From: Clostridia bacterium
GTDB taxonomy: Bacteria; Bacillota; Clostridia; TANB77; CAG-508
NCBI GenBank assembly: GCA_022794615.1
Contig: JAAWFD010000005.1
Span: 1 to 56,916, forward strand
Direction: 5' to 3'
DNA: 56,916 bases
Of the stretch, positions 21,817 through 37,895 are shown piece by piece. The notes beneath the pieces are model-generated. The model worked only from the letters and a program-made list of their open reading frames with translations. It made no database searches and was not told the DNA's origin. Positions within the stretch are counted from its first letter, which is position 1; each line of letters opens with the position of its first letter. The position numbers and the translations under genes are program-made.

Positions 21817-24800
21817 TTAAATTTTAAAAATTTCTTTTATTCTTCTTTTTATTGTAGTTCTATCAAATAATATATAATATATTAGCCTTACAAATCTATT
21901 TCTTTCATTTAAATCTACAATTGGATTATAACTTAAATCTCCTACTTTGTTTGTTTCTAAATTTATATTTCCTTTTTCAAATAGTTTCTCTAATGAACAT
22001 TGACTCTTGCTATTTAAATCTTCTTGCATATCATCTATCATTTTGCGTACTTTTCCTGTTCTTATGTCATCTTCAAATTCTATAGCACTTAATGGTTGCT
22101 TGTCTATCCTTCGTGATGAATTAAAATATGCCATTATTGGTAGTGTTATATAGTAATCCTGATAATATAATATATCTATATCTTCTTTAAATGTTTCTAC
22201 AACATCTTTTACAAATTCTATTGCTGCTTCTTGTATTGTCTTTACTATATATTCTACTTGATATATACTTTCATATTCTTCAAATACTGGTGATACTTTT
22301 TCACCATTTACATCATATGCTATACATGATGGTGCTAGTTTAGAGAATAATAGCTCATATGCATTTCCTGTTGCTGTTGGCTTTGCTGGGAAAAATGTTT
22401 TTAAATTGAATTTTCCCATTTCTGCATACTCAATAGCATCATCTCTATTTATATTTAAGAAATATGTGTCTACACTTTTATTGCATAATTCTGTTAGATA
22501 AAATTCTGGTCTTCCACTATATCCTACATCAAATACAGCTGGTTTTTCTCCTAAAATTGTATTAAAGTATGATTTTAGTTTTTCTCTACTCTTTTTATGT
22601 TCTTCTTCGTTGTAAAAATTATCTACGACTATTTTTATATATTTATTAAATTCTTGTATCGTTTTGAATCTTTTTGTAAATTCTATTTTTTCACTTTTAC
22701 ACAATTGCTCTAATTTATTTTCATCAACTTTTATTATTCTTGATATATATTTTAGTACTCCTTTTGGTGTATGTTTTTCTATTTCTAATATTTCAGATAA
22801 TTTATAAAAGTCTAACTTGCTAACTATCATTATTGGTATTAATGCTTTTCTTGAAACATACATATACTCCTCTGTTGGCATATCTTTGTATAATTCTTTC
22901 ATTATTTTATATGTTTGCATTACTAAATAACCATCTCTTGCCATGAACGATATTTTGTCATAGTTTCCTTGTATGTTATCTATTAGCCATTTTGTTACTC
23001 CAAATGCATACATTCCTAAAGCATAATATCCTATTAGATATGGGTCTGCATTAAAATCAGATTTTTCATTAAATGTTCTAAAAGGATTGTCAAAATACTT
23101 ATTGGCTACCATTGCCATCATTGTTCTTATTCCTAAAAATCTTTGTGACTCTTTATTGTCTTGCCAAAATGGTAAACTTTTTACAAGCATTTGTGATAAG
23201 TCGTTTGTTTTTACTGTATCTTGCATTACTTCTGCTGTTTTTGGAATATATACTGCTTTCATTCCTAAATCTTTAACTCGTTTATAGTCTGTTTCTCGAT
23301 TATCTCCTAAATGTATTATCTCATTTGGTTTTATATTTAAGTCTTTTAATACATATCTATGTAAATCGCCTGTCCATTTTGTTTTCTTTATTGTTGATGA
23401 TAAATACAGTTTTTCTATTTGTGTATATCCATTTCCTTTTAGCATTTTAACTATTGTTTCTTCTGGTAAATACATATCTGATGTACATATTACTTTTTTT
23501 CCTATATCTATTGCTAATTGATATAATTCATATGTTGTATTTCTGCGTTTACAAAATCTTAATTCGTATTCTTTTTCTTTTTCTTTTAATATATTTAATA
23601 TATTATTGTCTATTTCATATAATCCATGTATTGTTTCATATATTGCATCTAATGTTACTTCTTGAACTTCTGGATTTCTTTTAAACTGCTCATCTCTTGC
23701 TATACTTTCTGATACTGTTCTTATTTTTGAAAAACTTATTCCTGCTTTATTGTTACTTATTTTTCTATAGTCTCTGTCTAATAATCTAAATAAATCTACT
23801 GGCTCTAGAAATGGTCTTACTACTAATGTATCAAATATATCAAAACTTACATATTTTACTTCTTTATCTATTATTGCTTTTTTTACTTTTTCTAGCTTAT
23901 CATTCCAATTTGTTTCTACTGATGAAAATAAATTTGCATTTTCTATTTGTTTCTTTTCACTACAAAATGTATCCATCAATTCATTTAATTCTTTTTTTTC
24001 TGTTGCTTTTACTTTTCTTGCTTGTTTTATATAACTTCTATGTTGCATACTATATAAATGTTTCCATTTTAAAAATTGTTGCTCATACTTATCATATATT
24101 TTTACTTCTTTTAAGAAATCTTCTATGAATGAAAATGAAGTCATTAAATCTGATATATTGTTCTTTACCTTATTATAATTTATGTCCTTAATTGATGTTG
24201 AGGTTACTTCGTGTTGACAATAAAATATATTATCATTTTGTGTTCTTGTTATTTTATTTGCATAGTAGAATAATACTGTTGAAAAAGCAAAATCTTCTGT
24301 CATTATTAATCTTTTATTTATTTTTTTATAATGTCTCGTTGCTTCCTTCCATATTTTCATTGAATATATTTTATTCCATATTGTATGCCAAGAAAAATTT
24401 AGCCCTTCTTGTCTAAAGTACTCATCTATGCATTGACTTCCTTTTAATTCTTTGAAATTCATATTAAATAAATTATATTCTATTTTTTTACCACTATCAT
24501 ATTCTAATACTGTATTTCCTATAACTATATCAGAATTATTTTCAATTGCATTGTTCATTAATGTCCTATAAAAATCTATAGATGTATAGTCATCTGCATC
24601 TAAAAATGCTATATAGTCTCCTGTCGCTACTGATGCACCTGTTAATCTTGCTTGAAATAATCCCTTGTTTACATCATGCTTTACATATTTTATTCTGTTG
24701 TCTTTTTCTTGATATTCTTTCATGATTTCATCACTATTGCCTTTTGAACCATCATTTACTACAATTATTTCTAAATTTTTATATGTCTGTTCTATTACAC

Positions 24801-24879
24801 ATTCTAAACTTCTTTTTAAGTATTTTTCGTTATTATAATTTGGTATAATTATTGATAGCTTCTTATCCATTTTATACAT
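21817..24879 (-). CDS. GT2 + HAD phosphatase + phosphoribosyltransferase-like fusion; candidate ribofuranosyltransferase/polymerase
   Basis: GT2 ('IPNYN', 'FLDADD'); HAD motifs 'SFDIFDTL', 'TSDMYL', 'HLGDN..TD'; then 'FMARDGY' and PRPP-loop-like 'VFDVGYSG'. Confidence 0.8.
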   Translation of the reverse strand: MYKMDKKLSIIIPNYNNEKYLKRSLECVIEQTYKNLEIIVVNDGSKGNSDEIMKEYQEKDNRIKYVKHDVNKGLFQARLTGASVATGDYIAFLDADDYTSIDFYRTLMNNAIENNSDIVIGNTVLEYDSGKKIEYNLFNMNFKELKGSQCIDEYFRQEGLNFSWHTIWNKIYSMKIWKEATRHYKKINKRLIMTEDFAFSTVLFYYANKITRTQNDNIFYCQHEVTSTSIKDINYNKVKNNISDLMTSFSFIEDFLKEVKIYDKYEQQFLKWKHLYSMQHRSYIKQARKVKATEKKELNELMDTFCSEKKQIENANLFSSVETNWNDKLEKVKKAIIDKEVKYVSFDIFDTLVVRPFLEPVDLFRLLDRDYRKISNNKAGISFSKIRTVSESIARDEQFKRNPEVQEVTLDAIYETIHGLYEIDNNILNILKEKEKEYELRFCKRRNTTYELYQLAIDIGKKVICTSDMYLPEETIVKMLKGNGYTQIEKLYLSSTIKKTKWTGDLHRYVLKDLNIKPNEIIHLGDNRETDYKRVKDLGMKAVYIPKTAEVMQDTVKTNDLSQMLVKSLPFWQDNKESQRFLGIRTMMAMVANKYFDNPFRTFNEKSDFNADPYLIGYYALGMYAFGVTKWLIDNIQGNYDKISFMARDGYLVMQTYKIMKELYKDMPTEEYMYVSRKALIPIMIVSKLDFYKLSEILEIEKHTPKGVLKYISRIIKVDENKLEQLCKSEKIEFTKRFKTIQEFNKYIKIVVDNFYNEEEHKKSREKLKSYFNTILGEKPAVFDVGYSGRPEFYLTELCNKSVDTYFLNINRDDAIEYAEMGKFNLKTFFPAKPTATGNAYELLFSKLAPSCIAYDVNGEKVSPVFEEYESIYQVEYIVKTIQEAAIEFVKDVVETFKEDIDILYYQDYYITLPIMAYFNSSRRIDKQPLSAIEFEDDIRTGKVRKMIDDMQEDLNSKSQCSLEKLFEKGNINLETNKVGDLSYNPIVDLNERNRFVRLIYYILFDRTTIKRRIKEIFKI

Positions 24880-24899: not shown

Positions 24900-25673
24900 T
24901 TATAATTCTTCTGCAAATTTCTTTTGTAATTTGCTAAATAATAAATATCCTATTATACATATTAATATACTTATCCCTAGTACTATCATTAATGATTTTA
25001 TTTCTGGCATTTTTTTATAATAAAATATATTTCTAAATGCTTCTATTATATATGTCATGGGATTATATTTTAGTATCCATTTAAAATTTTCTGGTATTGT
25101 TGATGCTGAATAGACTATTGGTGTTGCATAAAATAACAATTGTAAAAGTACTGTTATAAAGTGTTGTAAGTCTCTAAAAAACACCGTAATACTTGAAACT
25201 ATAAATGATATCCCTATCAATAATATGTATTCAACTAATACTATTAATGGATAAAATATTACATACTTTGTTATTCCAAGTCCATATCCTAGTACAAAGG
25301 CTAATACTATTATTGTAGATATTACAAAATTAATCATTTCACTTGTTACTACTGATATTGATAATATTTCTCTAGGAAAATATACTTTTTTTATGATATT
25401 TCCATTTTCTATCATGGTAAATGCTGACCTTGATATTGCTGATGAAAAAAATGTCCATGGTATTAATCCACAACAAACAAACACTGTATAATTTGTTTCT
25501 GTACTTTTAGTTATTAATGGAAAAACTAGTGCATATACTACTATTTGTAATAGTGGATTTAAAAATGACCAAAATATTCCTAATACTGAATTTTTATATT
25601 TTCCTCTTACATCTTTTTTTACACTTGTTTTTAATAATTCTCTATATTCATACATATTTTTAAATATTTTCAT
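24900..25673 (-). CDS. Polysaccharide ABC exporter permease (Wzm/RgpC-like)
   Basis: 'RGKYKNSVLG.FWSFLNPL', 'IIKKVYFPRE', 'FFRDLQH', 'FYATPIVY', 'NPM'. Confidence 0.93.
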   Translation of the reverse strand: MKIFKNMYEYRELLKTSVKKDVRGKYKNSVLGIFWSFLNPLLQIVVYALVFPLITKSTETNYTVFVCCGLIPWTFFSSAISRSAFTMIENGNIIKKVYFPREILSISVVTSEMINFVISTIIVLAFVLGYGLGITKYVIFYPLIVLVEYILLIGISFIVSSITVFFRDLQHFITVLLQLLFYATPIVYSASTIPENFKWILKYNPMTYIIEAFRNIFYYKKMPEIKSLMIVLGISILICIIGYLLFSKLQKKFAEEL

Positions 25674-25698: not shown

Positions 25699-26448
25699 TT
25701 ACCTTGTTTCTTTTAAATATTCTTCTATTACTTCCTCTGGTTGTCCATCTATTTTTATTTCTCCATTGTGTATCCAAATTGCTCTATTACATAATTCTTT
25801 TACTGAGTCTAAACTATGTGTTACAAACACCATTGTTTTTCCTTCACTTCGTAATTCTTTCATTTTGTTTAAACATTTTTCTTGAAAATGCTGGTCTCCT
25901 ACAGATAAGATTTCATCTACTAATAGTATCTCAGCATCTACATTTATTGCTACTGAAAATGCTAAACGCATGAACATTCCTGATGAATATGTTCTTACTG
26001 GATTGTCTATATATTCTCCTAATTCTGAAAATTCTATTATTTGTTCTAGTCTTTCATCTATTTCTTTTTTTGTTAGTCCAAAGATTGATGCATTAAAATA
26101 TATATTTTCTCTTCCTGAAAAATCCATATGGAATCCAGCTCCTAGTTCTAACAATGATGTTAATTTTCCATATGTTTCTAGTTGTCCTTTATTAGGATAT
26201 ATTATTTTTGTCATTAACTTTAATAGTGTTGATTTTCCACTTCCATTTACTCCTATTAATGCTACTGCTTCTCCTTCTTGTATTTCTAAATTTATATTTT
26301 TTAATACCTCTCTAGTTTCTTTATTATTCCTATTCCAAAATAGTAGTTTTTCTTTTAGGCTATTAGCTTTGTCTAAATACACATCAAATGTTTTATATAC
26401 ATTTTTTACTTTTATTTTTACTGTATCCTTATCTTGCATTTGTTTCAC
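25699..26448 (-). CDS. Polysaccharide ABC exporter ATPase (Wzt-like, no C-terminal CBM)
   Basis: Walker A GVNGSGKS, 'LLELGAGF', 'YSSGMFMRLAFS', 'LLVDE'; 249 aa; true start may be ATG 26439. Confidence 0.93.
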   Translation of the reverse strand: MKQMQDKDTVKIKVKNVYKTFDVYLDKANSLKEKLLFWNRNNKETREVLKNINLEIQEGEAVALIGVNGSGKSTLLKLMTKIIYPNKGQLETYGKLTSLLELGAGFHMDFSGRENIYFNASIFGLTKKEIDERLEQIIEFSELGEYIDNPVRTYSSGMFMRLAFSVAINVDAEILLVDEILSVGDQHFQEKCLNKMKELRSEGKTMVFVTHSLDSVKELCNRAIWIHNGEIKIDGQPEEVIEEYLKETR

Positions 26449-26583: not shown

Positions 26584-27495
26584 TTAAAGTATATTTTTAC
26601 TACTTTTAGCACTTATTAAAAATCGTTTACTTTTTATCTTTCCTGGTATGTATAGGCATATTAATAATATTTTGTTGTAAATGTTTTTGATTTCATTTAT
26701 TTGTATATTTGTATTTGACAACACAGAAAATAAGATATAATGTTTTATAGTATATAGTCTTTTTTCAAATAGCACACCTTTCATATCTCTTTGTAAAATC
26801 TCTTTAAAATATGCAAAATATCCTTGTGGATTTTCTATAAATACTTTTTGTATATTCTTCGTATAGCCATCTTTTTGATATTCACACACCATAATTGGCT
26901 TATTGCAACAGATTATTTTATACTTTAAATCCATTTCATGATGTAGTCTTGCTTCTGTTCCAAATCTTTCATTATTTTCTAATTTGTATCTATATTTTTT
27001 GCGAATATTGCTAAAATATACTAATGATTTTTCTCCATCTTCTCCTTCTTTAAAATATAAGTCAAACATTGTTGTTTCTTTGTTTTTAAATTCTTTTCCT
27101 ATATTTTTATTTTGTAAATTATATTTTAAAAAACATATTGCATATATGTCTTTTCTGTATTTATTTTTGTTAAATTCCTCTTCTATAATACTAAATGCAT
27201 TTTCTATAAAATAGTCATCAGAGTCACATTCTATTATGACATCTCCTGTAGCATCCATTACTAAGTTATTTATTGCTACCATTTTCCCTTGGTTTTCTTG
27301 TTTTTTATACTTAATTTGTATTTTGTTTTGTTCTATAAATTGTTCTACAATCTGCTTTGTATTGTCTGTTGAACCATCATCCATTATTAACCATTCTATT
27401 TCTAGTTTTTCTTTTATATTTTTTATTAAACTTTCATATAATTTTTTTAGCATTTTCGCTCTATCATATGTTGCAGTTAATATTGATATCTTCAT
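26584..27495 (-). CDS. GT2 glycosyltransferase
   Basis: 'ISILTATYDR', 'MDDGSTD', 'NQGKMVA', 'CDSDD'; start chosen from GGAG RBS. Confidence 0.9.
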   Translation of the reverse strand: MKISILTATYDRAKMLKKLYESLIKNIKEKLEIEWLIMDDGSTDNTKQIVEQFIEQNKIQIKYKKQENQGKMVAINNLVMDATGDVIIECDSDDYFIENAFSIIEEEFNKNKYRKDIYAICFLKYNLQNKNIGKEFKNKETTMFDLYFKEGEDGEKSLVYFSNIRKKYRYKLENNERFGTEARLHHEMDLKYKIICCNKPIMVCEYQKDGYTKNIQKVFIENPQGYFAYFKEILQRDMKGVLFEKRLYTIKHYILFSVLSNTNIQINEIKNIYNKILLICLYIPGKIKSKRFLISAKSSKNIL

Positions 27496-27523
27496 TCTTT
27501 TTCTCCACATTATTAATTTTTCT

Positions 27524-28645
27524 TTATATTGTTATTCCTATTAGTTGTTCTACCTTTTTTATTATTTGTTCATTGTTATATTCTTTTGATTTTTCTGCCT
27601 TTTTTATATTATCTGTATTTTCTAATACTTCTTTTAATCCTTTATATATTCCTTGTTCTGTATTTTCAAATATTTTACTTTCTTCGTATTCTTTTATTGT
27701 TTCTTTTGCTGCTGTATCTGTTATTAATATATATTTTCCTAATATTTGTGCTTCTAGTAATACCATTGGATAGCCTTCATAATTTGATAATAGTGCAAAA
27801 TAATCTGATTTTTTTATATATGGATATGGATTTTCTTTTGCTCCTAATAGTTTTATAGTTTCTTGACATTGTTCTTTTTGTATTATTTCTTCTAGCCTCG
27901 TTCTTTCAGGTCCTTCGCCTATAACATATATATTGTGCTTTTTTCCCTCTTTTATTAATTTTGAATGTACTTTTATTAACCTATCTATTCCTTTTTGTTC
28001 TACTAATCTTGCTACTGTTACTATGTTTATTTCTTTCCCTTTTATTATTTCTTCGGCTTGTCCTTCTTTTGATTTTTCTATTATTCTGTTGCTATCTATA
28101 TAATTATATATTACTGCTTTTTCTGATTCATTTTTATATTGTTTCTCAAATTGTTCTAAATTGTCTTTACTTACAAATACTAATTTCTTAAATTTTTTGT
28201 ATATGTTCTCATCTATATTCCTTTTTATTTTAGCTTTCATTCCTGTTCCATATACTTTTGTTATGTCATTGTGTATCCATGCTATTTTTTTCTCTTTCTC
28301 TTTTCCTTGTGCAAATATTCTAGTGACTGGTCCTTCTAAAAATGCTACTTCTACATCATATTTATTTTTTATATATTTTTTATATATTTTTCTTTTTTCT
28401 AATAAGATTTTTATTGGTATTATTAATTTTCTTTGTATTTTTGTTAGTTCTTTATATTGTTTATTATATATACTTTTTAATTCTACTTCATCATTTAATT
28501 GTTTTTCTAATTCTCCTTTTGCATATATTGTAAATATTGTAATTTTACATTTTTTTTCTTTACTTAATTTGTTTGCTATGTCTACTAATACTCTTTCTGC
28601 TCCTCCTAATGTTAATCCTGTTATTCCAAATACTATTTTTTTCAT
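27524..28645 (-). CDS. GT4 glycosyltransferase
   Basis: 'GGAERV', 'AWIHND', 'VARLVEQKG', 'NPYPYIK', 'EGYPMVLLEA'. Confidence 0.9.
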   Translation of the reverse strand: MKKIVFGITGLTLGGAERVLVDIANKLSKEKKCKITIFTIYAKGELEKQLNDEVELKSIYNKQYKELTKIQRKLIIPIKILLEKRKIYKKYIKNKYDVEVAFLEGPVTRIFAQGKEKEKKIAWIHNDITKVYGTGMKAKIKRNIDENIYKKFKKLVFVSKDNLEQFEKQYKNESEKAVIYNYIDSNRIIEKSKEGQAEEIIKGKEINIVTVARLVEQKGIDRLIKVHSKLIKEGKKHNIYVIGEGPERTRLEEIIQKEQCQETIKLLGAKENPYPYIKKSDYFALLSNYEGYPMVLLEAQILGKYILITDTAAKETIKEYEESKIFENTEQGIYKGLKEVLENTDNIKKAEKSKEYNNEQIIKKVEQLIGITI

Positions 28646-28749
28646 TTTGGAGTTCCTTTCTGTTTGTTAATTATTCTTTCTTATATTTGACTTGTTATTA
28701 TTCGTTTTATCTTCTTTTTTTCGTGCTCATTATATCATATGGTTTTTTA

Positions 28750-28814
28750 AAAAACAATGCCTTTATTGAGCTCCCCTTTATTAAGGTTGAGTTCTATTTA
28801 AAAGCATTGTTTTT
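28750..28814 (-). terminator. Long hairpin closing the amino-sugar cassette
   Basis: AAAAACAATGC / GCATTGTTTTT outer arms with inner GAGCTC/GAGTTC and CCTT/AAGG. Confidence 0.6.
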
Positions 28815-28849
28815 CTAATATTTTTGTATTTAATTGTTTGTTTAATAAC

Positions 28850-29209
28850 CTATATTTTATTAGTATTTATATTCATTATTATAATTCCTATAATAATTAT
28901 AATAGCACCTACAATTCCTTGAGTTGATATAGTTTCTTTTAAAATGACTACTGATGCAATTAATGTTAATATTTGAATTATTCCTGCTGATATCGGATAA
29001 ATATAACTTAAGTTAAACATATTAACAATTCTAGTAAATAACAGAAAACTTAATATATAGCAAATAAATCCCGCACAACTTACTAAACTCATAGAAAAGT
29101 TTAGATTTCCACTTCTTATTAAAATTTCTCCTGTGTTTCCTCCTAATTTCATTAATACTAGTCCTGATGTTGTTAATAATAAATATATTATAATCAACAA
29201 TATTTGCAT
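28850..29209 (-). CDS. SMR/EamA-like 4-TM protein, candidate ArnE/F-type lipid-linked sugar flippase
   Basis: 119 aa, four TMs, 'LSYIYP', 'LKETIS..GIVG..III.GI'. Confidence 0.75.
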   Translation of the reverse strand: MQILLIIIYLLLTTSGLVLMKLGGNTGEILIRSGNLNFSMSLVSCAGFICYILSFLLFTRIVNMFNLSYIYPISAGIIQILTLIASVVILKETISTQGIVGAIIIIIGIIIMNINTNKI

Positions 29210-29275
29210 TACTTAATCTCCTCTTTCTCATAAATAACTTTGATTTTTCCTATAATATTTTACTAAATTATAATC

Positions 29276-30178
29276 TTAAAATCTGCAATTTAATGATTTT
29301 AATTTTTTCAAGCTCGTTTCATTATTGCATTCATAATCAGTAATTACTAATCCTGTATTATCACCACATACGACTACAATATCATCATCTAAAATTAATC
29401 CTACTTGTCCAGGCGTCCCGTATATTGGATAGTCAAATCTTTTACATTTCCAAATTATTACTTTTTCACCATCAATTAGAGTATATGCTCCTGGATATGG
29501 ATGTGATTGAGCACGTATGAAATTATATACTTCCAAATTATTTTTGTACCAATTTATTTTACCATCATCGGGTAGTCTTTTACCACAATAAGTAATTCCA
29601 TCAGAAGATTGTTTTTTTGGTGTGATGCTTTGTGATAAAATTCTAGGATAAACATTTTTTATACATTCAACTATTTCCTTATCTACCTTTTTAATAACAT
29701 CTTCTACAAAATCTTGTTCATCTACATCGACTATTCCTGTTGCCCAAATATCACCTGTATCCATTCCCTCTTCAAAAGAAAATAAAGAAAATCCTACTTG
29801 TCTATCACCATTAATCATTGTCCACACAAGAGGTGCAAATCCCCTGTATTTAGGTAATAAAGAATTATGAATTCCAATAAATCCATTTGGAACTGATTCT
29901 AGGACATTTTTACTAATTAAAAAATACCAACCTAAAACAAAACAAATATCAGGTTTCAATTCATCGATAATATCATTAAGCTGACTTGATTTATTAACAA
30001 CATAAAATGGTATTTCATTATTCGTACTAAATAATTTGAATTCATTAAAAAATGATCTAGTATCTAAACTATCATCTACAGTAACACATCCAACAATTTT
30101 TTCTGGAGAAATATTATAAATCTCCGTAAATGCACTAAACCCCAACTCTTTACTTCCTATAAATAATACTCTATTCAT
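29276..30178 (-). CDS. Sugar N-formyltransferase (Fmt/ArnA-N-like)
   Basis: 'IGIHNSLLPKYRGFAP', 'GMDTGDI', C-terminal 'FIRAQSHPYPGAYT'; start overlaps the epimerase stop. Confidence 0.88.
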   Translation of the reverse strand: MNRVLFIGSKELGFSAFTEIYNISPEKIVGCVTVDDSLDTRSFFNEFKLFSTNNEIPFYVVNKSSQLNDIIDELKPDICFVLGWYFLISKNVLESVPNGFIGIHNSLLPKYRGFAPLVWTMINGDRQVGFSLFSFEEGMDTGDIWATGIVDVDEQDFVEDVIKKVDKEIVECIKNVYPRILSQSITPKKQSSDGITYCGKRLPDDGKINWYKNNLEVYNFIRAQSHPYPGAYTLIDGEKVIIWKCKRFDYPIYGTPGQVGLILDDDIVVVCGDNTGLVITDYECNNETSLKKLKSLNCRF

Positions 30179-31148
30179 TGTTTTTATACCTCTCACCATA
30201 CCAATCAAGTGTTTTTACTATTCCTTCTTCAAAATCTATTTTTGGCTCAAATTCAAGAAGCTCTCTAGCCTTTTTAGATGATGCACATAATCTTTTTACA
30301 TCAGCAGTTCTTGCTTCATTATATTGAATTTCGCTTTTATAATCATAATATTTACATATATTTTCTATAATACTCTTTATAGTTAATTCTTTGCCAGAAC
30401 CTAAATTTATTATTTGTCCTTGAGTTTTTTCTCCATTTTCGTAAGCAAGTAGTAATCCTCTTACTGTATCTTCAACATATATGTAATCTCTTGTTTGTTC
30501 TCCAGTTCCTTCAATAACTGGTTTTTCGCCATTAAAAATTCTTTTAGCAGTTATAGGAATAATCCCAGCTAAATTCCCATCATTTTGTCTTGGTCCATAA
30601 TTATTAAATGGTCTTATTATTGTTATATCAAATTTATAAACATTGTAAAATGATTTTATTAATAAATCTGCTGCTGCTTTTCCAGCTGCATAAGGAGTAG
30701 TTGGATTCATTGGATGATTTTCATCCATTGGTGCATATTGTGCTGTTCCATATGCTTCTGATGAAGACATGTGTATTAATGTCTTAAATGCTCCATTTCT
30801 CATTAAATTCATTAATACATCAGCTATTTGTACATTTATCATGTAAGCTCCATGTGGATTAAAGAATGAATATATTAAGGCCATTGTTGCCATATTGTAT
30901 ACAACTTCTATTTCTTCGTTTTTTATAATAGCTTCCATTGCTCCTAAATCTGCTGCACTTTCTTTATATATTTTTATATTATCATAATTTGACATTGCAT
31001 ATTCCAAATTTTCCATTTTACCTACAAAGAAATTATCAACAACTACTACTTTTTTAGCTCCAGCTTTTAATAATGCATCTGTTAAATGGCTTCCTATAAA
31101 TCCTGCTCCACCTGTTACTAATACATTCTTGTCTTTTATACTTCTCAT
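30171..31148 (-). CDS. NAD-dependent nucleotide-sugar epimerase/dehydratase (extended SDR)
   Basis: 'GGAGFIGSHL', 'SSSEAYG', YxxxK 'YAAGK', 'RPFNNYGPRQ', 'RDYIYVED'. Confidence 0.92.
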   Translation of the reverse strand: MRSIKDKNVLVTGGAGFIGSHLTDALLKAGAKKVVVVDNFFVGKMENLEYAMSNYDNIKIYKESAADLGAMEAIIKNEEIEVVYNMATMALIYSFFNPHGAYMINVQIADVLMNLMRNGAFKTLIHMSSSEAYGTAQYAPMDENHPMNPTTPYAAGKAAADLLIKSFYNVYKFDITIIRPFNNYGPRQNDGNLAGIIPITAKRIFNGEKPVIEGTGEQTRDYIYVEDTVRGLLLAYENGEKTQGQIINLGSGKELTIKSIIENICKYYDYKSEIQYNEARTADVKRLCASSKKARELLEFEPKIDFEEGIVKTLDWYGERYKNNE

Positions 31149-32377
31149 TATTTTCCCTCCACTATTTTTTCTTTTAGTTCTACTATTTTATTTATTACAT
31201 ATTCTTGGTCTTCATCTGTCATTTGAACATATAATGGTAATGTTATAGATAGGCTGTCTGCTTTATATGCTCCATCAAAGTCTTTTGACTTATATCCAAA
31301 TTTTTCTTTATAATATCCTAACATATGAACAGCATGTGTTCCTACTCTTGTTGCTATTTTATTTTCTTCTAATTTTTCCATTAATTCATTTCTAAATTCA
31401 TGTGCTTCTTCTACTGTCATATTTAGCTTTTCATTATCAATCATACATACAAATGATTGATATGTATGATAATAATTTTCAGGTACTACTGGTGGATTGA
31501 TAAAGTCTACTTTCTCCAGTAGTTTTCTATATAAATCTGCTTTTGTTCTTCTTGTTTCTGTTATATATGTCATTTTATCCATTTGTGCAACTCCTACTGC
31601 TGCTTGGATGTCTGTCATTCTATAATTATATCCCAAATCATTAAAATCTGGTAATAAATATCCTGCATTTTTATGTCTTGCTATTTCTGATACGGATGCT
31701 CCATGACTACGAAGTTGGGTTGTTATTTTATATATTTCTTCATCACTTGTTAATATCATTCCACCTTCTCCTGTAGTTATTGATTTTCTTGGATGAAAAC
31801 TTAAACAAGTTGGATTTCCAAATTCACTTTCGTATTTATCTCCAATTTTTGCACCAAAAGCACAAGCACTATCTTCTAATACTTTTAAGTTGTATTTTTT
31901 TGCTATTTCGTTTATTCTTGGTAAATCTGCACATAGCCCAAATAAATTTACTGGCACTAATGTAGTTAATTTGTTTCCTGTCTGTTTGTTTATTAATTCT
32001 CCATTTTTATTTTCATATTTTTCTTGAATTGTTCTTTCTATTTCTTCTACAACAATATTATATGTGGTAGGATGTACATCCACTAATATTGGTGTTGCTC
32101 CAGTATATAATACTGAATTTGCTGTTGCTACAAATGTAAATGCAGGTACTATTACATCTTGACCTTCTCTTACACCTAATGCTACTAATGCTAAATGTAA
32201 TGCAGTTGTACAAGATGTTGTTGCAATTCCATATTTTGTATTTTCATAACTTGCAACCTTTTCTTCAAACTCTTTTACTTTTGGTCCTTGTGCTACCCAT
32301 CCAGAAGCTAGAACTTTTTCTACCTCTCTTTTCTCTTCTTCTCCTATATAGGGAATCATTACTGGTATTTCTTTCAT
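31148..32377 (-). CDS. DegT/DnrJ/EryC1/StrS aminotransferase
   Basis: 'LASGWVAQGP', 'TSCTTALHL', 'EDSACA', 'SFHPRKSITTGEGGM', 'GYNYRMTD'. Confidence 0.93.
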   Translation of the reverse strand: MKEIPVMIPYIGEEEKREVEKVLASGWVAQGPKVKEFEEKVASYENTKYGIATTSCTTALHLALVALGVREGQDVIVPAFTFVATANSVLYTGATPILVDVHPTTYNIVVEEIERTIQEKYENKNGELINKQTGNKLTTLVPVNLFGLCADLPRINEIAKKYNLKVLEDSACAFGAKIGDKYESEFGNPTCLSFHPRKSITTGEGGMILTSDEEIYKITTQLRSHGASVSEIARHKNAGYLLPDFNDLGYNYRMTDIQAAVGVAQMDKMTYITETRRTKADLYRKLLEKVDFINPPVVPENYYHTYQSFVCMIDNEKLNMTVEEAHEFRNELMEKLEENKIATRVGTHAVHMLGYYKEKFGYKSKDFDGAYKADSLSITLPLYVQMTDEDQEYVINKIVELKEKIVEGK

Positions 32378-32432
32378 TTCTATTTACCTCCTAGTTTTTA
32401 TACTATATGAGCCTCTTTCTCTCAGCTTTATT

Positions 32433-33371
32433 TTATTCTATCTTTTCCACTCTGTCAACTATAAATGCTGGTCTGTTTCTAGTTGAATCTAAAATTCTCC
32501 ATATATATTCTGCTACTATCCCTAATGATATATTTGTAATTCCAAATCCTAACAAGACAACAACAAGTAGTGTTGGATATCCCATTGGCATTTGATTATT
32601 TACAAATATTTTGTAAATAATTGTAAATATTGCTATTAATACACTTATTACTGACATTATTATTCCTATTATGCTTACAGCTCTAATAGGCATATATGAG
32701 AAATTAACAAAAGAATCTATAAATAATTTAATTCGTTTAGAAAATGTCCACTTTGATTTTCCATTTTTTCTTGCATTTAAAGAATATGGTATAAATTCTT
32801 TTTTAAATCCCATATCTAGTATTTGCAACATTATTGAAGAGTTTTTTTCTATATTATTATTTAATATTTCTTTAGCTTGTCCATTAAACATCAATGTATT
32901 AGCACCTTCAACTGGAAAATCTTTTACAGCATATTTTTTTATTAATTTTGAATAAGAGTTTGAAAATAATTTTTCAATTTTTCCAATACTAACATTTTCT
33001 TTATATGCACATACTACTTGTGCTCCTTGCTGGATTTTTTCATACATTCGTGTTATTACACTAAATGGCTCTTGTAAATCAGCACTGAAAAATGTACATA
33101 TATCATTGGTAGCATTTTGTATACCAGCTCTTATTGCATTATGTGAACCATAATTTTTAGATAACTTAACAATCTTTGCATCAAAATTCTCAAAGTTTTG
33201 TTTTTTCAATACTTCTATGGAATTATCTGTTGAACCATCATCTACAAAAACTACTTCTGCATGAAATTCTGCTTGTTTACAATTTTCATTTAAATAATTT
33301 ACTAATTCTTCTATATTATCTTCTTCATTTAAGAATGGGATTACTATTGATATATTATCTGACATATTCAT
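32433..33371 (-). CDS. GT2 polyprenyl-phosphate glycosyltransferase (ArnC/GtrB-like)
   Basis: 'PFLNEEDN', 'DDGSTD', 'LSKNYGSH.A', 'ADLQEP', 'R..GKSKWTF', C-terminal TMs, 'G..AEYIWR'. Confidence 0.88.
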   Translation of the reverse strand: MNMSDNISIVIPFLNEEDNIEELVNYLNENCKQAEFHAEVVFVDDGSTDNSIEVLKKQNFENFDAKIVKLSKNYGSHNAIRAGIQNATNDICTFFSADLQEPFSVITRMYEKIQQGAQVVCAYKENVSIGKIEKLFSNSYSKLIKKYAVKDFPVEGANTLMFNGQAKEILNNNIEKNSSIMLQILDMGFKKEFIPYSLNARKNGKSKWTFSKRIKLFIDSFVNFSYMPIRAVSIIGIIMSVISVLIAIFTIIYKIFVNNQMPMGYPTLLVVVLLGFGITNISLGIVAEYIWRILDSTRNRPAFIVDRVEKIE

Positions 33372-33372
33372 A

Positions 33373-33915
33373 TTATTTTACCTCTATTGTTTTTTTACAT
33401 TCGCTACAATACATATTATTATCTAACCTGTTTCCACATTTGCATACATATCCTATTTTTCTTGCTGGATTTCCAACAACTAAAGAATATGGTTCAACAT
33501 CTTTAGTGACTACACTTCCTGAGCCTATCATTGAATATTCTCCAATTGTATTTCCACATACTATTGTGGCATTTGCACCAATAGATGCTCCTTTTTTTAC
33601 TAATGTTTTTGTTACTTTCCATTCTTTGTTGAATGCTCTTGGATAAAAGTCATTAGTAAATGTCATTGATGGTCCGCAAAACACATCATCTTCTATTGTA
33701 ACACCATGATATACATTTACATTATTTTGAATTTTTACATTGTTTCCAATTGTAACATCTGAATCTATGTATACATTTTTACTAATTATACAGTTTTCAC
33801 CAATACTAGCATTTTCTCTTACTTGTGCTAAATTCCATACTTTTGTATTTTTTCCAATGTTGGCTTTATCACTTACTTCTGCTGTGCCATGTATATACAC
33901 ATTTTCACCTTTCAT
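33373..33915 (-). CDS. Hexapeptide N-acyltransferase (WbpD/WlbB-like)
   Basis: 'IGKNTKVW', 'KIQNNV', 'FTND.YPR', 'GASIGANATIVCG', 'VVGNPAR..G.VC.CG'. Confidence 0.88.
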   Translation of the reverse strand: MKGENVYIHGTAEVSDKANIGKNTKVWNLAQVRENASIGENCIISKNVYIDSDVTIGNNVKIQNNVNVYHGVTIEDDVFCGPSMTFTNDFYPRAFNKEWKVTKTLVKKGASIGANATIVCGNTIGEYSMIGSGSVVTKDVEPYSLVVGNPARKIGYVCKCGNRLDNNMYCSECKKTIEVK

Positions 33916-33935
33916 TTATCTTACACTTCCTTATT

Positions 33936-34913
33936 TTAATATCTCTTTTTTAGTTCTACTAAATTTATCTTTTCTGCAAGCTCTACTGCTTTTGTTGCAT
34001 CTTTACCTGATGTTAATGGAGTTCTTCCTTCTATTATTGCCTTAGCAAATTCTAAATGTTCTGCTCTTAATGGTTCTACATTAGGTAACATTATTTTTTC
34101 TATTATATTTTCTTGCTTATATGTTGGTACATATCCTACATTTAAATCAAATGTTGTTTTTCTGGATACAGTTAGTGTTCTATTTAATAGGTCTGCTCTT
34201 ATAAAACATTTTTTAGTATGAATATCTATGGTTCTTACTTTGTCCTCTGTTACACGACTTGCTATAAGTGATGATATTGTTCCATTTGTATGTTGTGCAA
34301 CTGCTTGTACATAGTCAGCTCTATTATTACTCATAACATTTACTGCTGTAGATGTTATATTTTCTATTGGCGTTATATTTAAATAATTAAATACTATATC
34401 AATGTCATGTATCATTAAGTCATATATAACATTTGTGTCTGATATTCTTGGGTCAAATGGACTGCATCTTCTTGCTTCTATAGCTATTATTTCTTCGTTA
34501 TCTATTATTTTTTTTAATTCTGATACAACTGAATTATATCTTTCTACATGTCCTACCATTAGTCTAACATTATTTTTTTCAAACTCTTCACATAACATTT
34601 TTCCATCTTCTTCACTTAATGCTATTGGCTTTTCTATTAATGCATGTACTTTATGTTTTGCTACCATTAAACCTATTTCTTTATGTAATGATGATGGCAC
34701 TGCTATTATAACTGCATCAACATTATTAAGTAGTTCTTCTATTTCTTTATAATACTTTATTTTATATGTTTCTTCTGCAAATTTTATGTTTTCTTCCATT
34801 TTATCTGAAAACCCTACAAGTTCAAAATCTTTATTTAATTCCTTTAGCACTCTTAAATGGTTTCTTCCCATATGTCCTGTACCTATTACACCTATTTTTA
34901 TCATATTTAACAC
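33936..34913 (-). CDS. Gfo/Idh/MocA oxidoreductase (WbpB/WlbA/GnnA-like)
   Basis: 'GTGHMG', 'LIEKPIA', 'VGHVERYN', 'DLMIHDID', 'ASRVT..KVR'. Confidence 0.88.
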   Translation of the reverse strand: MLNMIKIGVIGTGHMGRNHLRVLKELNKDFELVGFSDKMEENIKFAEETYKIKYYKEIEELLNNVDAVIIAVPSSLHKEIGLMVAKHKVHALIEKPIALSEEDGKMLCEEFEKNNVRLMVGHVERYNSVVSELKKIIDNEEIIAIEARRCSPFDPRISDTNVIYDLMIHDIDIVFNYLNITPIENITSTAVNVMSNNRADYVQAVAQHTNGTISSLIASRVTEDKVRTIDIHTKKCFIRADLLNRTLTVSRKTTFDLNVGYVPTYKQENIIEKIMLPNVEPLRAEHLEFAKAIIEGRTPLTSGKDATKAVELAEKINLVELKKRY

Positions 34914-36110
34914 CTACATCTTTTCAAAAAATTTTTTTATCATATCTACTATATATTGTAATTCTTCTTGTGTTAGTTCTGGAAATATTGGTAAGCACAC
35001 GGTCTCTTTTGATAGTCTTTCTGAAACAGGTAAACTTCCTTCTTTATATCCTAAATATTTGAATGCTTCTTGTAAATGTAGTGGTATTGGATAAAATGCT
35101 CCTGTTCCTACTCCATTGTCTGACAAAAATTTTCCTAATTCATCTTTGTATTTTGTTTTTATTACAAATTGATGCCATACATCTTTTCTATCTGTTAATT
35201 CTTGTTGTAATACTATATCTCCTACTCCTTTTAGGTTTTCTAAATAGAATTTAGCATTTTGTGTTCTTTTTGCATTCCACTTGTCTAAATGTTTTAGTTT
35301 TGTTCTTAATACTACTGCTTGTATAGAATCTAATCTAGAATTATATGCTATTAAATAATTGTAATATTTGTATGGGTTATATAATGGGTCTTCTTCTTTT
35401 AATTCTTTTAATGCTTCTACATTTCCTTCTAATATATTTTTTGCTTGTAGCCCATTCTTACCTCCTGCATGTTCCCTTAATGCTTTACATATAACTGATA
35501 ATTGCTCATCATTTGTTGTTATTAATCCTGCATCTCCAAATGCTCCTAAGTTTTTTGTTGGAAAGAATGAAAAACAAGCTATATCTCCTAATGCTCCCGC
35601 CTTTATATTTTTATATTCTGCCCCTATTGCTTGGCATGCATCTTCTATTACTTTTAAATTGTATTTCTTTGCAATCCTCATTATTTCATCCATATTTGCC
35701 ATTCTTCCAAATATATGAACTGGTAATATTGCTTTTGTTTTACTTGTTATTTTTTCTTCAATTTTGGTTACATCTATGTTTAAGTTTTCATAGTCTACAT
35801 CTACAAATACTGGTGTTGCTCCTACACTAGCTATACTTTCTGCTGTTGCAAAAAATGTAAATGGTGTGGTTATTACTTCATCCCCTTCTTTTACTCCACA
35901 TGCCTCTAATGCTATTACTAATGCATCTGTTCCATTTCCTACAGTTATAGCATTTTTACATCCTATATACTCACATAGTTCTTCTTCTAATGTTGAAACT
36001 TCTTTACCCATAACATAATTTCCTGATTGTAATGTTTCTAAAATTCGTGGCTCTAATTCTTCTTTAAAATCTGCATATTGTCTTTGTAAATTTAATATTG
36101 GCACTTTCAT
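34914..36110 (-). CDS. DegT family aminotransferase (WbpE/WlbC/GnnB-like)
   Basis: 'NGTDAL', 'TPFTFFATAE', 'EDACQAIGA', 'SFFPTKNLGAFGDAG', 'NSRLD'. Confidence 0.92.
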   Translation of the reverse strand: MKVPILNLQRQYADFKEELEPRILETLQSGNYVMGKEVSTLEEELCEYIGCKNAITVGNGTDALVIALEACGVKEGDEVITTPFTFFATAESIASVGATPVFVDVDYENLNIDVTKIEEKITSKTKAILPVHIFGRMANMDEIMRIAKKYNLKVIEDACQAIGAEYKNIKAGALGDIACFSFFPTKNLGAFGDAGLITTNDEQLSVICKALREHAGGKNGLQAKNILEGNVEALKELKEEDPLYNPYKYYNYLIAYNSRLDSIQAVVLRTKLKHLDKWNAKRTQNAKFYLENLKGVGDIVLQQELTDRKDVWHQFVIKTKYKDELGKFLSDNGVGTGAFYPIPLHLQEAFKYLGYKEGSLPVSERLSKETVCLPIFPELTQEELQYIVDMIKKFFEKM

Positions 36111-36159
36111 TTTTTATTCCTCCTATTTCTTTATTTAATTAAAATATATTTAGATTTAA

Positions 36160-37659
36160 TTAATAACTAACCATATACAATGTGTCTTTTACAAATATAA
36201 GTTGTTCTTCACTAAATTCACTCCAGTCTTTTCCTTTTATATAAGTATTATATACATCATCATCCATTGGTACTATTTCAAAGTCTTTTCCATAGTAATG
36301 CCATATTACATCTTTCCAAGACCATGAAACTGTTAACGCTCTTCCTAAACAGTCTATATTTACATTTGGTTGATTTGGTATCCACCATGTATAATTTTCA
36401 TCGTAGCAATATGAAAATTTTGTTACTTCTATATTATTTGTTAGTTCGTATTCTTCTATTGCCCTCATTACTTTTCCTGCAATATATTTGTCATAATCAT
36501 TAATTCTAACTATTGCATCCACTAATCTATATGATAGATTTACTAGTACAAATATATATCCTCCTATTATTATTCCAATTAGTAATCTAAGCATTGAATT
36601 TATATCAATGTAATTAATTCCCATAAACAATAATATTAACCAAGGAATTGTTGAAATTGTTAGTATTGTTCTTGGTACAATACTTACTGTTGATACAATA
36701 TATGGTATTAATGCCGCAATTGATGTCATTACTATTGCTCCTACTATACATATAGACATATTCCAAAAATTCTTCTTATCTTTTTTTATTATATATATGA
36801 ATGTTATTGCTAAAAATAATACTATTATTCCCCAAAAAAAGAATTTCGGAAAAAATCCATATGAGTCTATCCATATTGTTTGTTGTGCTTCAAATATTCT
36901 TTTTATTCCTTCGCCTAAAGTTATTGATTCATATCGGTTGGTATCAGTTATATTTATTAATATTAGATTTGATATACATGAGATTCCATATATTATTCCT
37001 ATTATAAAATATCTTTTTATATTTTGAATTAATGGTTCATTTTTATATTTATATCCTAATAATATCATGCCTAACCCTATAAATAGTGGTCCTATTCCTT
37101 GATAAATGCACAGTCCTATCATATTTAATATAGTCGATATGCATATATTTCTAATAGTTAATTCTTTCAATAGTATTCTTACTGCATATATTACTATAAT
37201 ATATTGTATTGATAAACTTGTCATTACATTGTATACAAACAATTCAAAACTAAAAGCATTAAAAATAATTAAGAATGATGCTAGTCCTGTTATCCATATA
37301 CTTTTTGTCTTGTTTTTTGTTAATTCTTCACATGTTTTATATAACAGTATTGTGGCTATTATTAATATTACAATTGATAAGAAATTAAATAGTCCTTGAT
37401 TCGCCATCATATTTAAACCTATCATATTTACATAGAATAAGAACATATCGCTTAATGGTCTTCCTGATATTGAGTTTACTACACTTCCTAGCATGTCTCT
37501 TGAATATACATCATTTTTTGGATTTATTAATAAGTATGAATCTGGTGTCATATGAAATTTAAAAAATGGTCCTATACATAAAAATCCTAATAATACAATT
37601 GCTAGATATAATCCTACTTCTTTCTTGTTTTTCTTTAGTACTTCAATTAATTTATTCAT
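36160..37659 (-). CDS. Polytopic GT-C-type glycosyltransferase (Glucos_trans_II/GtrII-like)
   Basis: 'TPDSY' in first loop, 'SGRP', 'L..YQ' motif, about 10 TMs, 'PRT', extracellular C-terminal domain. Confidence 0.75.
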   Translation of the reverse strand: MNKLIEVLKKNKKEVGLYLAIVLLGFLCIGPFFKFHMTPDSYLLINPKNDVYSRDMLGSVVNSISGRPLSDMFLFYVNMIGLNMMANQGLFNFLSIVILIIATILLYKTCEELTKNKTKSIWITGLASFLIIFNAFSFELFVYNVMTSLSIQYIIVIYAVRILLKELTIRNICISTILNMIGLCIYQGIGPLFIGLGMILLGYKYKNEPLIQNIKRYFIIGIIYGISCISNLILINITDTNRYESITLGEGIKRIFEAQQTIWIDSYGFFPKFFFWGIIVLFLAITFIYIIKKDKKNFWNMSICIVGAIVMTSIAALIPYIVSTVSIVPRTILTISTIPWLILLFMGINYIDINSMLRLLIGIIIGGYIFVLVNLSYRLVDAIVRINDYDKYIAGKVMRAIEEYELTNNIEVTKFSYCYDENYTWWIPNQPNVNIDCLGRALTVSWSWKDVIWHYYGKDFEIVPMDDDVYNTYIKGKDWSEFSEEQLIFVKDTLYMVSY

Positions 37660-37857
37660 TTTTTTACAACTCCTATTATTTTTTTACTATATCATATTTA
37701 ACATAATCAATCAAGTCGTTTTTTTTAATTTATGAAATTCGTCGTGTATGTTTATAAACATAGATACATTGTTTTAAATTTTAAATTTATAAAATTAACT
37801 TTTTAATGTTGTTTTGTATCTATCAATTATATTATGGTAAAAATAGTAAAAAAATAT

Positions 37858-37895
37858 TCCTGATATTGTAGTTTTTAGTTCCTACAACATCAGGA
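37858..37895 (-). terminator. Terminator downstream of thrS
   Basis: TCCTGAT-ATTGTAG / CTACAA-CATCAGGA arms; A-run on the plus strand gives a U-tract on minus. Confidence 0.6.

Follow-up and report, generated by a model that had tools for sequence, protein, structure and literature searches.

Organization of the locus

The 56,916-nt stretch of DNA analysed here, in the following called the window, stems from a Clostridia bacterium (contig JAAWFD010000005.1 of assembly GCA_022794615.1) and carries a nine-gene cassette whose content points to the decoration of a cell-wall glycopolymer with a rare amino sugar outside the cytoplasm. The listing of open reading frames (ORFs) together with domain searches places nine co-oriented genes on the minus strand at 28850-37659, separated by intergenic gaps of -8 to 66 nt. 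In the order of transcription they encode a GT-C fold glycosyltransferase (GT), a DegT-family aminotransferase (DegT1), a Gfo/Idh/MocA oxidoreductase, a hexapeptide acyltransferase, a GT2 enzyme, a second DegT protein (DegT2), a short-chain dehydrogenase/reductase (SDR), a formyltransferase-fold enzyme and a 119-aa protein with four hydrophobic segments (Table 1). The longest ORF of the formyltransferase gene begins at a TTG at position 30208. G+C content in the window ranges from 23 to 33%, and nearly every gene lies on the minus strand.

Two hairpins delimit the cassette, one of which is the terminator of the upstream thrS gene. Both came from direct reading and folding, with z-scores calculated against shuffled sequences (200 shuffles for the 37858-37895 hairpin), and a consensus terminator scanner reported no minus-strand terminator in the flanks. 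The candidate promoter ahead of the GT-C gene is weak evidence, as sigma-70-type consensus matches are not enriched over shuffles. An earlier sequence-only reading of this DNA had described a co-oriented nine-gene block with these domains between two terminators, and this description is confirmed by the ORFs, the Pfam and NCBIfam matches and the folded hairpins.

Table 1. Features of the cassette and of the adjoining polysaccharide locus, with positions in the window.
Feature	Position	Strand	Evidence
Terminator hairpin of upstream thrS, upper cassette boundary	37858..37895	-	14-bp stem and U-run; -20.7 kcal/mol, z -6.7
Candidate sigma-70-type promoter ahead of the GT-C gene, TTGATT-17-TATAGT with upstream TG	37686..37714	-	Consensus scan only
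GT-C fold glycosyltransferase, GtrII family, 499 aa	36160..37659	-	PF14264 and fold
DegT1, DegT-family sugar 3-aminotransferase (predicted)	34914..36110	-	Pfam, nearest solved relatives
Gfo/Idh/MocA oxidoreductase, predicted UDP-GlcNAc 3-dehydrogenase	33936..34913	-	Pfam, NCBIfam, nearest solved relatives
Left-handed beta-helix (hexapeptide) acyltransferase, WlbB/WbpD-like, predicted 3-N-acetyltransferase	33373..33915	-	Pfam, nearest solved relatives
Polyprenyl-phosphate GT2, GtrB/ArnC/PgfS-like, two C-terminal membrane helices	32433..33371	-	Pfam, NCBIfam, PDB relatives
DegT2, DegT-family sugar 4-aminotransferase (predicted)	31148..32377	-	Pfam, NCBIfam, nearest solved relatives
Extended SDR, predicted C4-keto former (4,6-dehydratase or C4 oxidase)	30171..31148	-	Pfam, motif, NCBIfam
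Formyltransferase-fold enzyme, ArnA-N-terminal-like, 300 aa from ATG	29276..30178	-	Formyl_trans_N and Formyl_trans_C
119-aa protein, four hydrophobic segments, SMR/DMT-like, candidate flippase	28850..29209	-	Weak EamA/SMR/ArnF matches
Terminator hairpin closing the cassette	28749..28815	-	17-bp outer stem and U-run; -24.9 kcal/mol, z -6.1
GT4	27524-28645	-	Pfam
GT2	26584-27510	-	Pfam
ABC ATPase	25699-26448	-	Pfam
ABC-2 permease	24900-25673	-	Pfam
Very large multi-domain GT	21817-24879	-	Pfam
Very large multi-domain GT2-GT4	19543-21810	-	Pfam
GtrA-family protein	19013-19456	-	Pfam
GT2	18004-18954	-	Pfam

Predicted lipid-carrier machinery

For the transfer of a sugar to a lipid carrier, the cassette GT2 is the candidate enzyme. 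Its strong solved relatives are only GtrB (132 bits, residues 3-307) and ArnC (126 bits, residues 6-308), followed by dolichol-P-mannose synthase, and reading of the sequence reveals a DDGSTD motif and two C-terminal hydrophobic helices. Among the NCBIfam models, PgfS gives the highest score (157 bits, cut-off 500), ahead of ArnC (152 bits, cut-off 529). The full-length alignment to GtrB and ArnC and the C-terminal helices mark the enzyme as a lipid-carrier type and do not group it with the soluble GTs.

The first gene product, a 499-aa protein, had been proposed to be a GT-C enzyme, and this assignment holds both by its match to PF14264 (54.3 bits, cut-off 30; PMT_2 gave no match) and by a fold search. 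An AlphaFold model built on an alignment of ten homologs (predicted local distance difference test score, pLDDT, 84.3; predicted template modelling score 0.87) retrieved GT-C enzymes such as STT3, PglB and AftB as all of its top 16 Foldseek matches in the PDB, with probabilities of 0.95-1.0, E-values of only 6e-3 to 0.1 and template modelling scores of about 0.4. Beyond these 16, unrelated transporters follow with probabilities below 0.3, and ArnT is not among the fold matches listed. Such modest scores support the GT-C fold class of the model and not a specific family. All 10 homologs keep four residues: D40 in the first loop, R67, N134 and K206. The protein evolves fast: homologs in genomes of the same genus are at most 27% identical, a word-based search returned only 5 matches, and a scan of the genome contigs with this single protein found no relatives.

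The 119-aa protein gives weak EamA and SMR matches in Pfam and 26 bits against the NCBIfam ArnF model (cut-off 99), and does not belong to the GtrA family. Drug pumps of the SMR family need an acidic residue in the first transmembrane (TM) helix, which is missing here. Together with scores far under the cut-offs, this led us to reject a role as a quaternary ammonium compound or drug pump. An ortholog with 76% identity occupies the same position in the most similar of the related cassettes described below.

Predicted enzymes for a multi-amino sugar

Three of the remaining enzymes resemble a known 3-amino pathway. The Gfo enzyme has the UDP-GlcNAc 3-dehydrogenase model NF040723 as its top NCBIfam match (205 bits, cut-off 450). 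Its closest solved relative is 7bvj, which we take to be GnnA (116 bits); 3q2k, presumably the Bordetella enzyme WlbA, is much further away (54.7 bits). DegT1 is closest to solved 3-aminotransferases (QdtB 311 bits, DesV 266, WlaRG 266, WbpE 238), and the hexapeptide enzyme to 3mqg, which we take to be WlbB (173 bits), and then to the sugar 3-N-acetyltransferases 7s43, 4mzu and QdtC. The trio thus probably corresponds to the known route to UDP-GlcNAc3NAc, with substrate and regiochemistry being predictions from these relationships.

A second set of enzymes would act on C4. DegT2 falls within the 4-aminotransferase clade, with 8vr3 (188 bits), ArnB (166 bits) and perosamine synthase (165 bits) as closest solved relatives and with NCBIfam scores for PseC (301 bits), LegC (280) and ArnB (231.7; cut-off 631) that all stay below the cut-offs; a literature search on the PDB codes 8VR2, 8VR3 and 8VR5 found no characterised precedent. 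The SDR carries the motifs S129-S130-E131 and Y153-x3-K157, with Glu131 at the position of the catalytic base of RmlB, where 4-epimerases have Ala or Gly. It scores 212 bits with the LegB and 196 bits with the RmlB model, versus 62.8 for ArnA (cut-off 777) and 54.9 for UDP-4-keto-pentose synthase. A plain 4-epimerase was considered and rejected because of this Glu and since the keto substrate of DegT2 has no other source in the cassette.

Across loci, the motif S-[ST]-S-E-[AV]-Y-G is kept in the orthogroup of this SDR. Genuine ArnA_DH-like SDRs (FSTSE[VI]FG...RW.Y..SK, with a characteristic insertion) group apart and are paired elsewhere with the same formyltransferase family, and the window SDR lacks the ArnA/UXS-type insertion motif seen in other loci. 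Judged by its sequence, the SDR is therefore not of the ArnA type. For its reaction, we give a 4,6-dehydration leading to a 6-deoxy sugar an even chance; a plain oxidation leading to a 6-hydroxy sugar is a more tentative option, and a decarboxylation leading to a pentose appears improbable. An Ara4N-type pentose product is unlikely because the SDR is not ArnA-type and no UDP-sugar 6-dehydrogenase is present in the genome.

The formyltransferase has the formyltransferase domain of ArnA as its closest solved relative (113 bits) and reaches 164 bits with the NCBIfam ArnA model (cut-off 777). In the alignment, G102, H104 and D140 stand opposite N102, H104 and D140 of ArnA, so that His and Asp are kept and the catalytic Asn is replaced by Gly. 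This G102 is invariant in 37 homologs and retained in nearly all of the 80 related loci examined below. Since the residue after the His is variable within the clade, a simple relocation does not explain the replacement of the Asn. Second formyltransferase paralogs in some loci retain the N-x-H motif. Formyl transfer by the Asn-less clade is thus likely, but not certain. A housekeeping Fmt was rejected as identity of the cassette enzyme, because a separate, better-scoring Fmt-like gene is encoded elsewhere in the genome. At E <= 1e-10 there are 972 homologs of the cassette enzyme, and members of the Asn-less clade are usually annotated as methionyl-tRNA formyltransferase.

All NCBIfam scores of the cassette proteins lie under the curated cut-offs, and in consequence none of the enzymes can be called an equivalog of a characterised one.

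Related cassettes in other genomes

A scan of the species genomes in GTDB, seeded with the formyltransferase alignment, yielded 318 relatives, of which 80 were fetched with 10-kb flanks (individual loci carry an L number). A GT2 ortholog with 44-55% identity lies within 10 kb of the formyltransferase in 11 of the 80. Ten of these eleven are uncut by a contig end and also encode 4-TM ORFs of about 110-130 aa and/or a protein of 475-790 aa with 8-12 TM helices. The loci with such a GT2 are found in Lachnospiraceae (including the isolates AB2028 and MD308), in Eubacteriales and Eubacterium metagenome-assembled genomes (MAGs), in bacterium 1XD8-76, and further in an Ignavibacteriales and a gammaproteobacterial MAG, so that monoderm and diderm phyla are both represented. 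In an Omnitrophota MAG (L027) the genes are arranged likewise, and the GT2 is further removed (31% identity). GT2 and formyltransferase genes are directly adjacent in six loci (L013, L014, L020, L021, L027, L032). The large membrane proteins include a GtrII match (L029) and a YfhO match (L019), and small membrane genes are paired in L013, L015, L029 and L032. The gene set hence recurs in Lachnospiraceae, Eubacteriales, Ignavibacteriales, Gammaproteobacteria and Omnitrophota, which bears out the expected co-conservation.

The closest cassettes, L093, L094 and L095, came from a search seeded with the GT-C protein. Gene order in L095 is the same as in the window, and the eight shared proteins are 71-90% identical; identities are 32-76% for L094 and 39-85% for L093. 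In the window, L095 and L094 the GT2 gene is set between the two enzyme trios. L093 adjoins an ABC-2 transporter and large GTs (its ABC ATPase is 67% identical), while L094 adjoins a TagO/WecA-type gene, a GT4-GT2 pair and a glycerol-3-phosphate dehydrogenase-like gene. Exactly at the position of the formyltransferase, L095 and L094 encode an acetyltransferase of the NeuD/PglD/VioB family. The last tailoring step is thus cleanly exchanged, formyl for acetyl, which supports the acylation of the C4 amine.

At a threshold of at least 40% identity, the SDR type occurs in 22 of the 80 loci, and 19 of these 22 also contain a WlbB-like acetyltransferase within 10 kb, compared with 14 of 57 others; these counts carry no correction for common descent. 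The genes of the two trios directly follow or overlap one another in L021, L015, L032 and L010. The cassette SDR was found in 0 of 40 relatives of the host, 24 of which belong to the same genus. Because of this absence and of the low identity of the GT-C homologs, the cassette is regarded as a variable unit, probably exchanged horizontally, and not as a lineage trait.

Several related loci show other gene combinations. L029:4086-10927 (Clostridia bacterium, contig CAJTDE010000010.1) is a minimal Arn-like set in a Clostridia genome: it comprises an ArnA_DH-type SDR, two EamA-like small proteins, a DegT, an ArnC-like GT2, a GtrII GT-C and a formyltransferase of the same clade, and the 3-amino trio is absent. 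This set is nearer to the true Ara4FN route than the window cassette. A radical SAM/SPASM protein of about 310 aa lies between or beside DegT2 and the formyltransferase in L028:4208-5143, L014:8358-9317 and L041:10937-11854, and also in L020 and L036; this protein may stand in, without being an ortholog, for the enzyme that introduces the C4 keto group. L010-L012 (L012 from GCA_910576485.1) contain a run of DegT1, acetyltransferase, DegT2, SDR and formyltransferase together with WbmS-like, asparagine-synthase-like and extra formyltransferase genes. No ArnC-like GT2 adjoins the formyltransferase in L010-L012, and this formyltransferase is indexed in 395 blocks of the assembly collection. We take the locus to resemble the Bordetella wbm region, which makes triamino uronamide sugars.

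Besides, a protein of about 240 aa is encoded beside or near the GT2 gene in L028:6068-6805, L036:10915-11652, L015:9410-10129 and L014:12220-13002. The 245-aa form had no sequence match in Pfam, NCBIfam or the PDB, and a model (pLDDT 73) matched CE4 deacetylases, including Salmonella ArnD, in a fold search (E 4.9e-4). In those cassettes, this protein is a candidate deformylase. The window cassette had been described as free of an ArnD-like deformylase, which holds: Pfam found no CE4 domain in the nine proteins, and the window has no homolog of the CE4-fold protein. Since the cassette has no deacylase, the formyl group probably stays on and the decoration would be neutral.

Genomic surroundings and host envelope

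Upstream of the cassette, Pfam identifies the housekeeping genes thrS and eno. Past the closing terminator, the minus strand carries on with genes for a wall polysaccharide, among them an ABC-2 transporter, that span 28645 to 18004. The nine-gene block is thus not self-contained; it opens a larger wall-glycopolymer locus that depends on an ABC transporter. The GtrA-family gene and its GT2 neighbour (Table 1), at the opposite end of this locus, constitute a second lipid-carrier pair.

The host assembly comprises 0.99 Mb at 87% completeness. No LpxC was found in it, the sporulation genes SpoVT and YtfJ are present in the window, and a cluster mate of the GroEL protein bears the name 'Clostridia bacterium'. 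On these grounds the host is likely monoderm, in agreement with the view of the sequence-only reading that this is a Gram-positive without signs of lipid A. The genome also encodes an LCP ligase, a formate-tetrahydrofolate ligase that can supply the formyl donor, and three CE4 deacetylases (PF01522) on other contigs. A UDP-sugar 6-dehydrogenase (PF03721) is missing from the host assembly at its given completeness; this family is above its cut-off in 13 of 41 searched genomes, all 13 being relatives.

Proposed pathway and alternatives

Based on our data, we propose with a probability of roughly 0.55 that the cassette is a module for attaching one rare multi-amino sugar to a cell-wall glycopolymer outside the cytoplasm, a proposal that draws on homology and gene context. 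The Gfo enzyme would oxidise UDP-GlcNAc at C3, DegT1 would aminate this position, and the WlbB-like transferase would acetylate the amine to give UDP-GlcNAc3NAc. The SDR would then form a keto group at C4 for amination by DegT2, and the ArnA-like enzyme would formylate the new amine from N10-formyl-tetrahydrofolate. The expected product is UDP-2,3-diacetamido-4-formamido-2,3,4-trideoxyhexose, 6-deoxy or 6-hydroxy depending on the chemistry of the SDR. The ArnC/GtrB-like GT2 could move this sugar onto undecaprenyl phosphate (Und-P), the four-helix SMR-like protein could flip the loaded sugar across the membrane to the outside, and the GtrII-type GT-C could attach it to an acceptor, most likely the ABC-transporter-exported polysaccharide encoded just downstream. 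Homology and context therefore support the earlier idea of an Arn-parallel set that makes an amino sugar, loads it on Und-P, flips and transfers it; the plural "sugars" of that idea is replaced by a single sugar as the more probable product. As for the biological role, the swap between formyl and acetyl alleles and the patchy distribution fit better with strain-variable surface antigen or phage-receptor chemistry, which is the likely function, than with charge modification. Among the roles suggested earlier, charge-based resistance to antimicrobial peptides is least likely if the sugar stays formylated.

Several observations weigh against this proposal. The closest solved relatives of the SDR are 4-epimerases (6dnt, 186 bits), and in L014, L020, L028, L036 and L041 a radical SAM/SPASM enzyme takes the position of the SDR, which hints at a simple C4 oxidation and not a dehydration; for both reasons the C4-C6 chemistry is uncertain. 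With the canonical Asn of the N-x-H...D triad missing from the formyltransferase clade, its acyl group or mechanism may differ from that of ArnA. There is only one SMR-like gene, compared with two in ArnE/F and in several related cassettes, and the flippase function and the identity of the acceptor are deduced from gene context. In addition, every NCBIfam match falls under its curated cut-off, as mentioned above. The three CE4 genes elsewhere in the genome could strip the formyl group, and the genome is only 87% complete.

The two trios could also occur together because they supply two sugars of one glycan. In such a scenario, the 3-amino trio makes UDP-GlcNAc3NAc for the backbone GT4 and GT2, and a simpler 4-formamido sugar, e.g. 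QuiNAc4NFo, goes on Und-P. The GT2 gene physically separates the trios in the window, GT4 and GT2 genes come after the cassette both here and in L094, and L029 combines formyltransferase, 4-aminotransferase, GT2, EamA pair and GtrII without the 3-amino trio, which means that the lipid-carrier branch can work without it. However, the SDR of L029 differs, being ArnA-type, the SDR type of the window is tied to the WlbB-like acetyltransferase (19 of 22 versus 14 of 57 loci), and trio genes overlap or abut in L021, L015 and L010. We therefore consider two sugars unlikely, albeit worth keeping in view, and given the co-occurrence and the contiguous trio genes, both trios probably act on one sugar in a single pathway to a 2,3-diacetamido-4-formamido sugar. 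The acceptor could conceivably be lipoteichoic acid instead of the exported polysaccharide, or else a protein of the surface or S-layer, as in the Pgf O-glycosylation of Streptococcus mutans: PgfS is the top NCBIfam match of the GT2, L094 sits beside TagO-type and glycerol-3-phosphate dehydrogenase-like genes that suggest a teichoic-acid context, and the acceptor specificity of a GT-C is unreadable from sequence. The PgfS score of 157 bits is nevertheless far under the cut-off of 500, no Pgf-type partner proteins were identified, and the cassettes of the window and of L093 sit in polysaccharide loci with ABC-2 transporters, which makes a different acceptor rather doubtful.

It is also conceivable that GT2, SMR-like protein and GT-C move an ordinary hexose (Glc, Gal or GlcNAc) in the manner of Gtr, CsbB/YfhO or GacI-L, and that the amino sugars feed Leloir GTs. 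The characterised Gram-positive multi-component systems all use common sugars (PMC8035078), and the trio of DegT, SDR and formyltransferase occurs without an adjoining ArnC-like GT2 in L010-L012 and L041. Yet the GT2 orthologs (44-55% identity) travel with the formyltransferase across phyla, next to it in six loci, and the GT2 gene is inserted between the trios in the window, L095 and L094; we thus regard an ordinary hexose as quite improbable. A pentose of the Ara4FN kind has even less in its favour. Here, the SDR would oxidatively decarboxylate UDP-GlcA or UDP-GlcNAc3NAcA to yield a 4-formamido-arabinose derivative. The S-S-E motif does resemble T-S-E of ArnA and UXS, the formyltransferase is closest to ArnA, a UDP-sugar 6-dehydrogenase adjoins the cassette in L015 and L079, and a comparable natural sugar exists, as 2,3,4-triacetamido-L-arabinose occurs in a Psychrobacter O-antigen (PMC8040287). 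This explanation is nonetheless very unlikely for the window, as PF03721 is absent from the host genome, in contrast to 13 of the 41 searched genomes, which are all relatives, the ArnA-type models give 55-63 bits versus 196-212 for the 4,6-dehydratase models, and the true ArnA_DH-like SDRs are a separate group in other loci.

Comparison with known systems

The parallel to Arn comprises the predicted sequence of C4 keto formation, DegT amination and N-formylation, the ArnC-like Und-P GT2, the small SMR/DMT-like candidate flippase and the final transfer by a GT-C. The differences are more numerous. The SDR is not of the ArnA_DH type and no supply of UDP-GlcA is encoded; an extra trio for a 3-amino/3-N-acetyl group is present; ArnD is missing and one SMR-like gene stands in place of the ArnE/F pair. 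Moreover, the GT-C belongs to the GtrII family (PF14264) and not to ArnT (PMT_2), lipid A is not expected in the host, in which no LpxC was found, the formyltransferase lacks the catalytic Asn, and all proteins score under the Arn equivalog cut-offs. The cassette works like Arn, but it is not an Arn member, since it departs from most of the features that define membership. A literature search on Arn-like systems in Gram-positives found no characterised precedent.

With the multi-component transmembrane glycosylation systems (GtrA/GtrB/Gtr, CsbB/GtcA/YfhO, GtlA/GtlB, GacI-L; PMC8035078, PMC5836110) the cassette shares the Und-P GT2, a small candidate flippase, a GT-C and the location in a wall-polymer locus. 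The similarity extends to phage GtrII, which belongs to the same Pfam family as the cassette GT-C, and GtrB is the closest solved relative of the GT2. In contrast to these systems, six enzymes of the operon are predicted to supply a multi-amino N-formyl donor sugar instead of Glc, Gal or GlcNAc, and the candidate flippase is SMR/DMT-like and neither GtrA/GtcA nor Wzx, as in GacK. In a 2021 review of the Gram-positive multi-component systems, neither 'formyl' nor 'amino sugar' occurs (PMC8035078).

The predicted combination of Gfo 3-dehydrogenase, 3-aminotransferase and left-handed beta-helix 3-N-acetyltransferase resembles WbpB/WbpE/WbpD (WlbA/C/B), GnnA/GnnB and the archaeal UDP-GlcNAc 3-dehydrogenase route, which lead to 2,3-diacetamido sugars. 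Unlike in the WbpB/E/D route, there is no UDP-GlcNAc 6-dehydrogenase (WbpA) in the host genome, so that the product should not be a uronic acid, and we propose that it is further modified at C4 and used via a lipid carrier and not directly by Leloir GTs. The predicted C4 branch follows the bacillosamine type of PglF/E/D and LegB/C/H, the routes to 2,4-diacetamido-2,4,6-trideoxyhexoses, with an SDR, a C4 aminotransferase and an N-acyltransferase (LegB 212 bits, LegC 280 bits), and L095 and L094 also finish with the NeuD/PglD/VioB-family acetyltransferase. Here, the scores stay under the cut-offs, the window has formyl in place of acetyl, the substrate is probably a 3-acetamido sugar already, and a dehydratase role of the SDR is a prediction.

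Significance and further observations

Most likely, the cassette represents an uncharacterised variant of a known decoration route, and the general principle is not new. A more far-reaching reading, which we offer only tentatively, is that its sugar (a 2,3-diacetamido-4-formamido-2,3,4-trideoxy- or 2,3,4,6-tetradeoxy-hexose) is new to the described glycans and is delivered by Und-P and GT-C to a Gram-positive wall polymer. Formylation would be the task of a widespread, uncharacterised clade in which Gly has replaced the supposedly essential Asn, and the sister alleles (acetyl, CE4-fold deacylase, radical SAM) would form a modular toolkit with which uncultured gut-type Clostridia and members of several diderm phyla vary their surface chemistry. 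A literature search on natural triamino-tetradeoxy sugars found no characterised precedent, and where Gram-positive wall polymers are known to be decorated through a lipid carrier, the sugars are the common ones, Glc, Gal and GlcNAc (PMC8035078). If this reading is true, a delivery route for common sugars is coupled with six enzymes that make an N-formylated sugar bearing three nitrogens, which extends the envelope chemistry of monoderms. It would likewise assign a role to a large formyltransferase clade whose members are routinely mislabelled as methionyl-tRNA formyltransferase, and to an SDR orthogroup tied to 3-acetamido sugars. Furthermore, it would be a clear case of a last-enzyme allelic swap, formyl versus acetyl, by which Clostridia that are poorly cultured and probably gut-associated vary their surface antigens or phage receptors.

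Apart from the cassette, the window contains a 733-aa ORF on the minus strand (47128-49329), located between groEL and a dCMP deaminase gene, which has no Pfam match at E <= 0.001.

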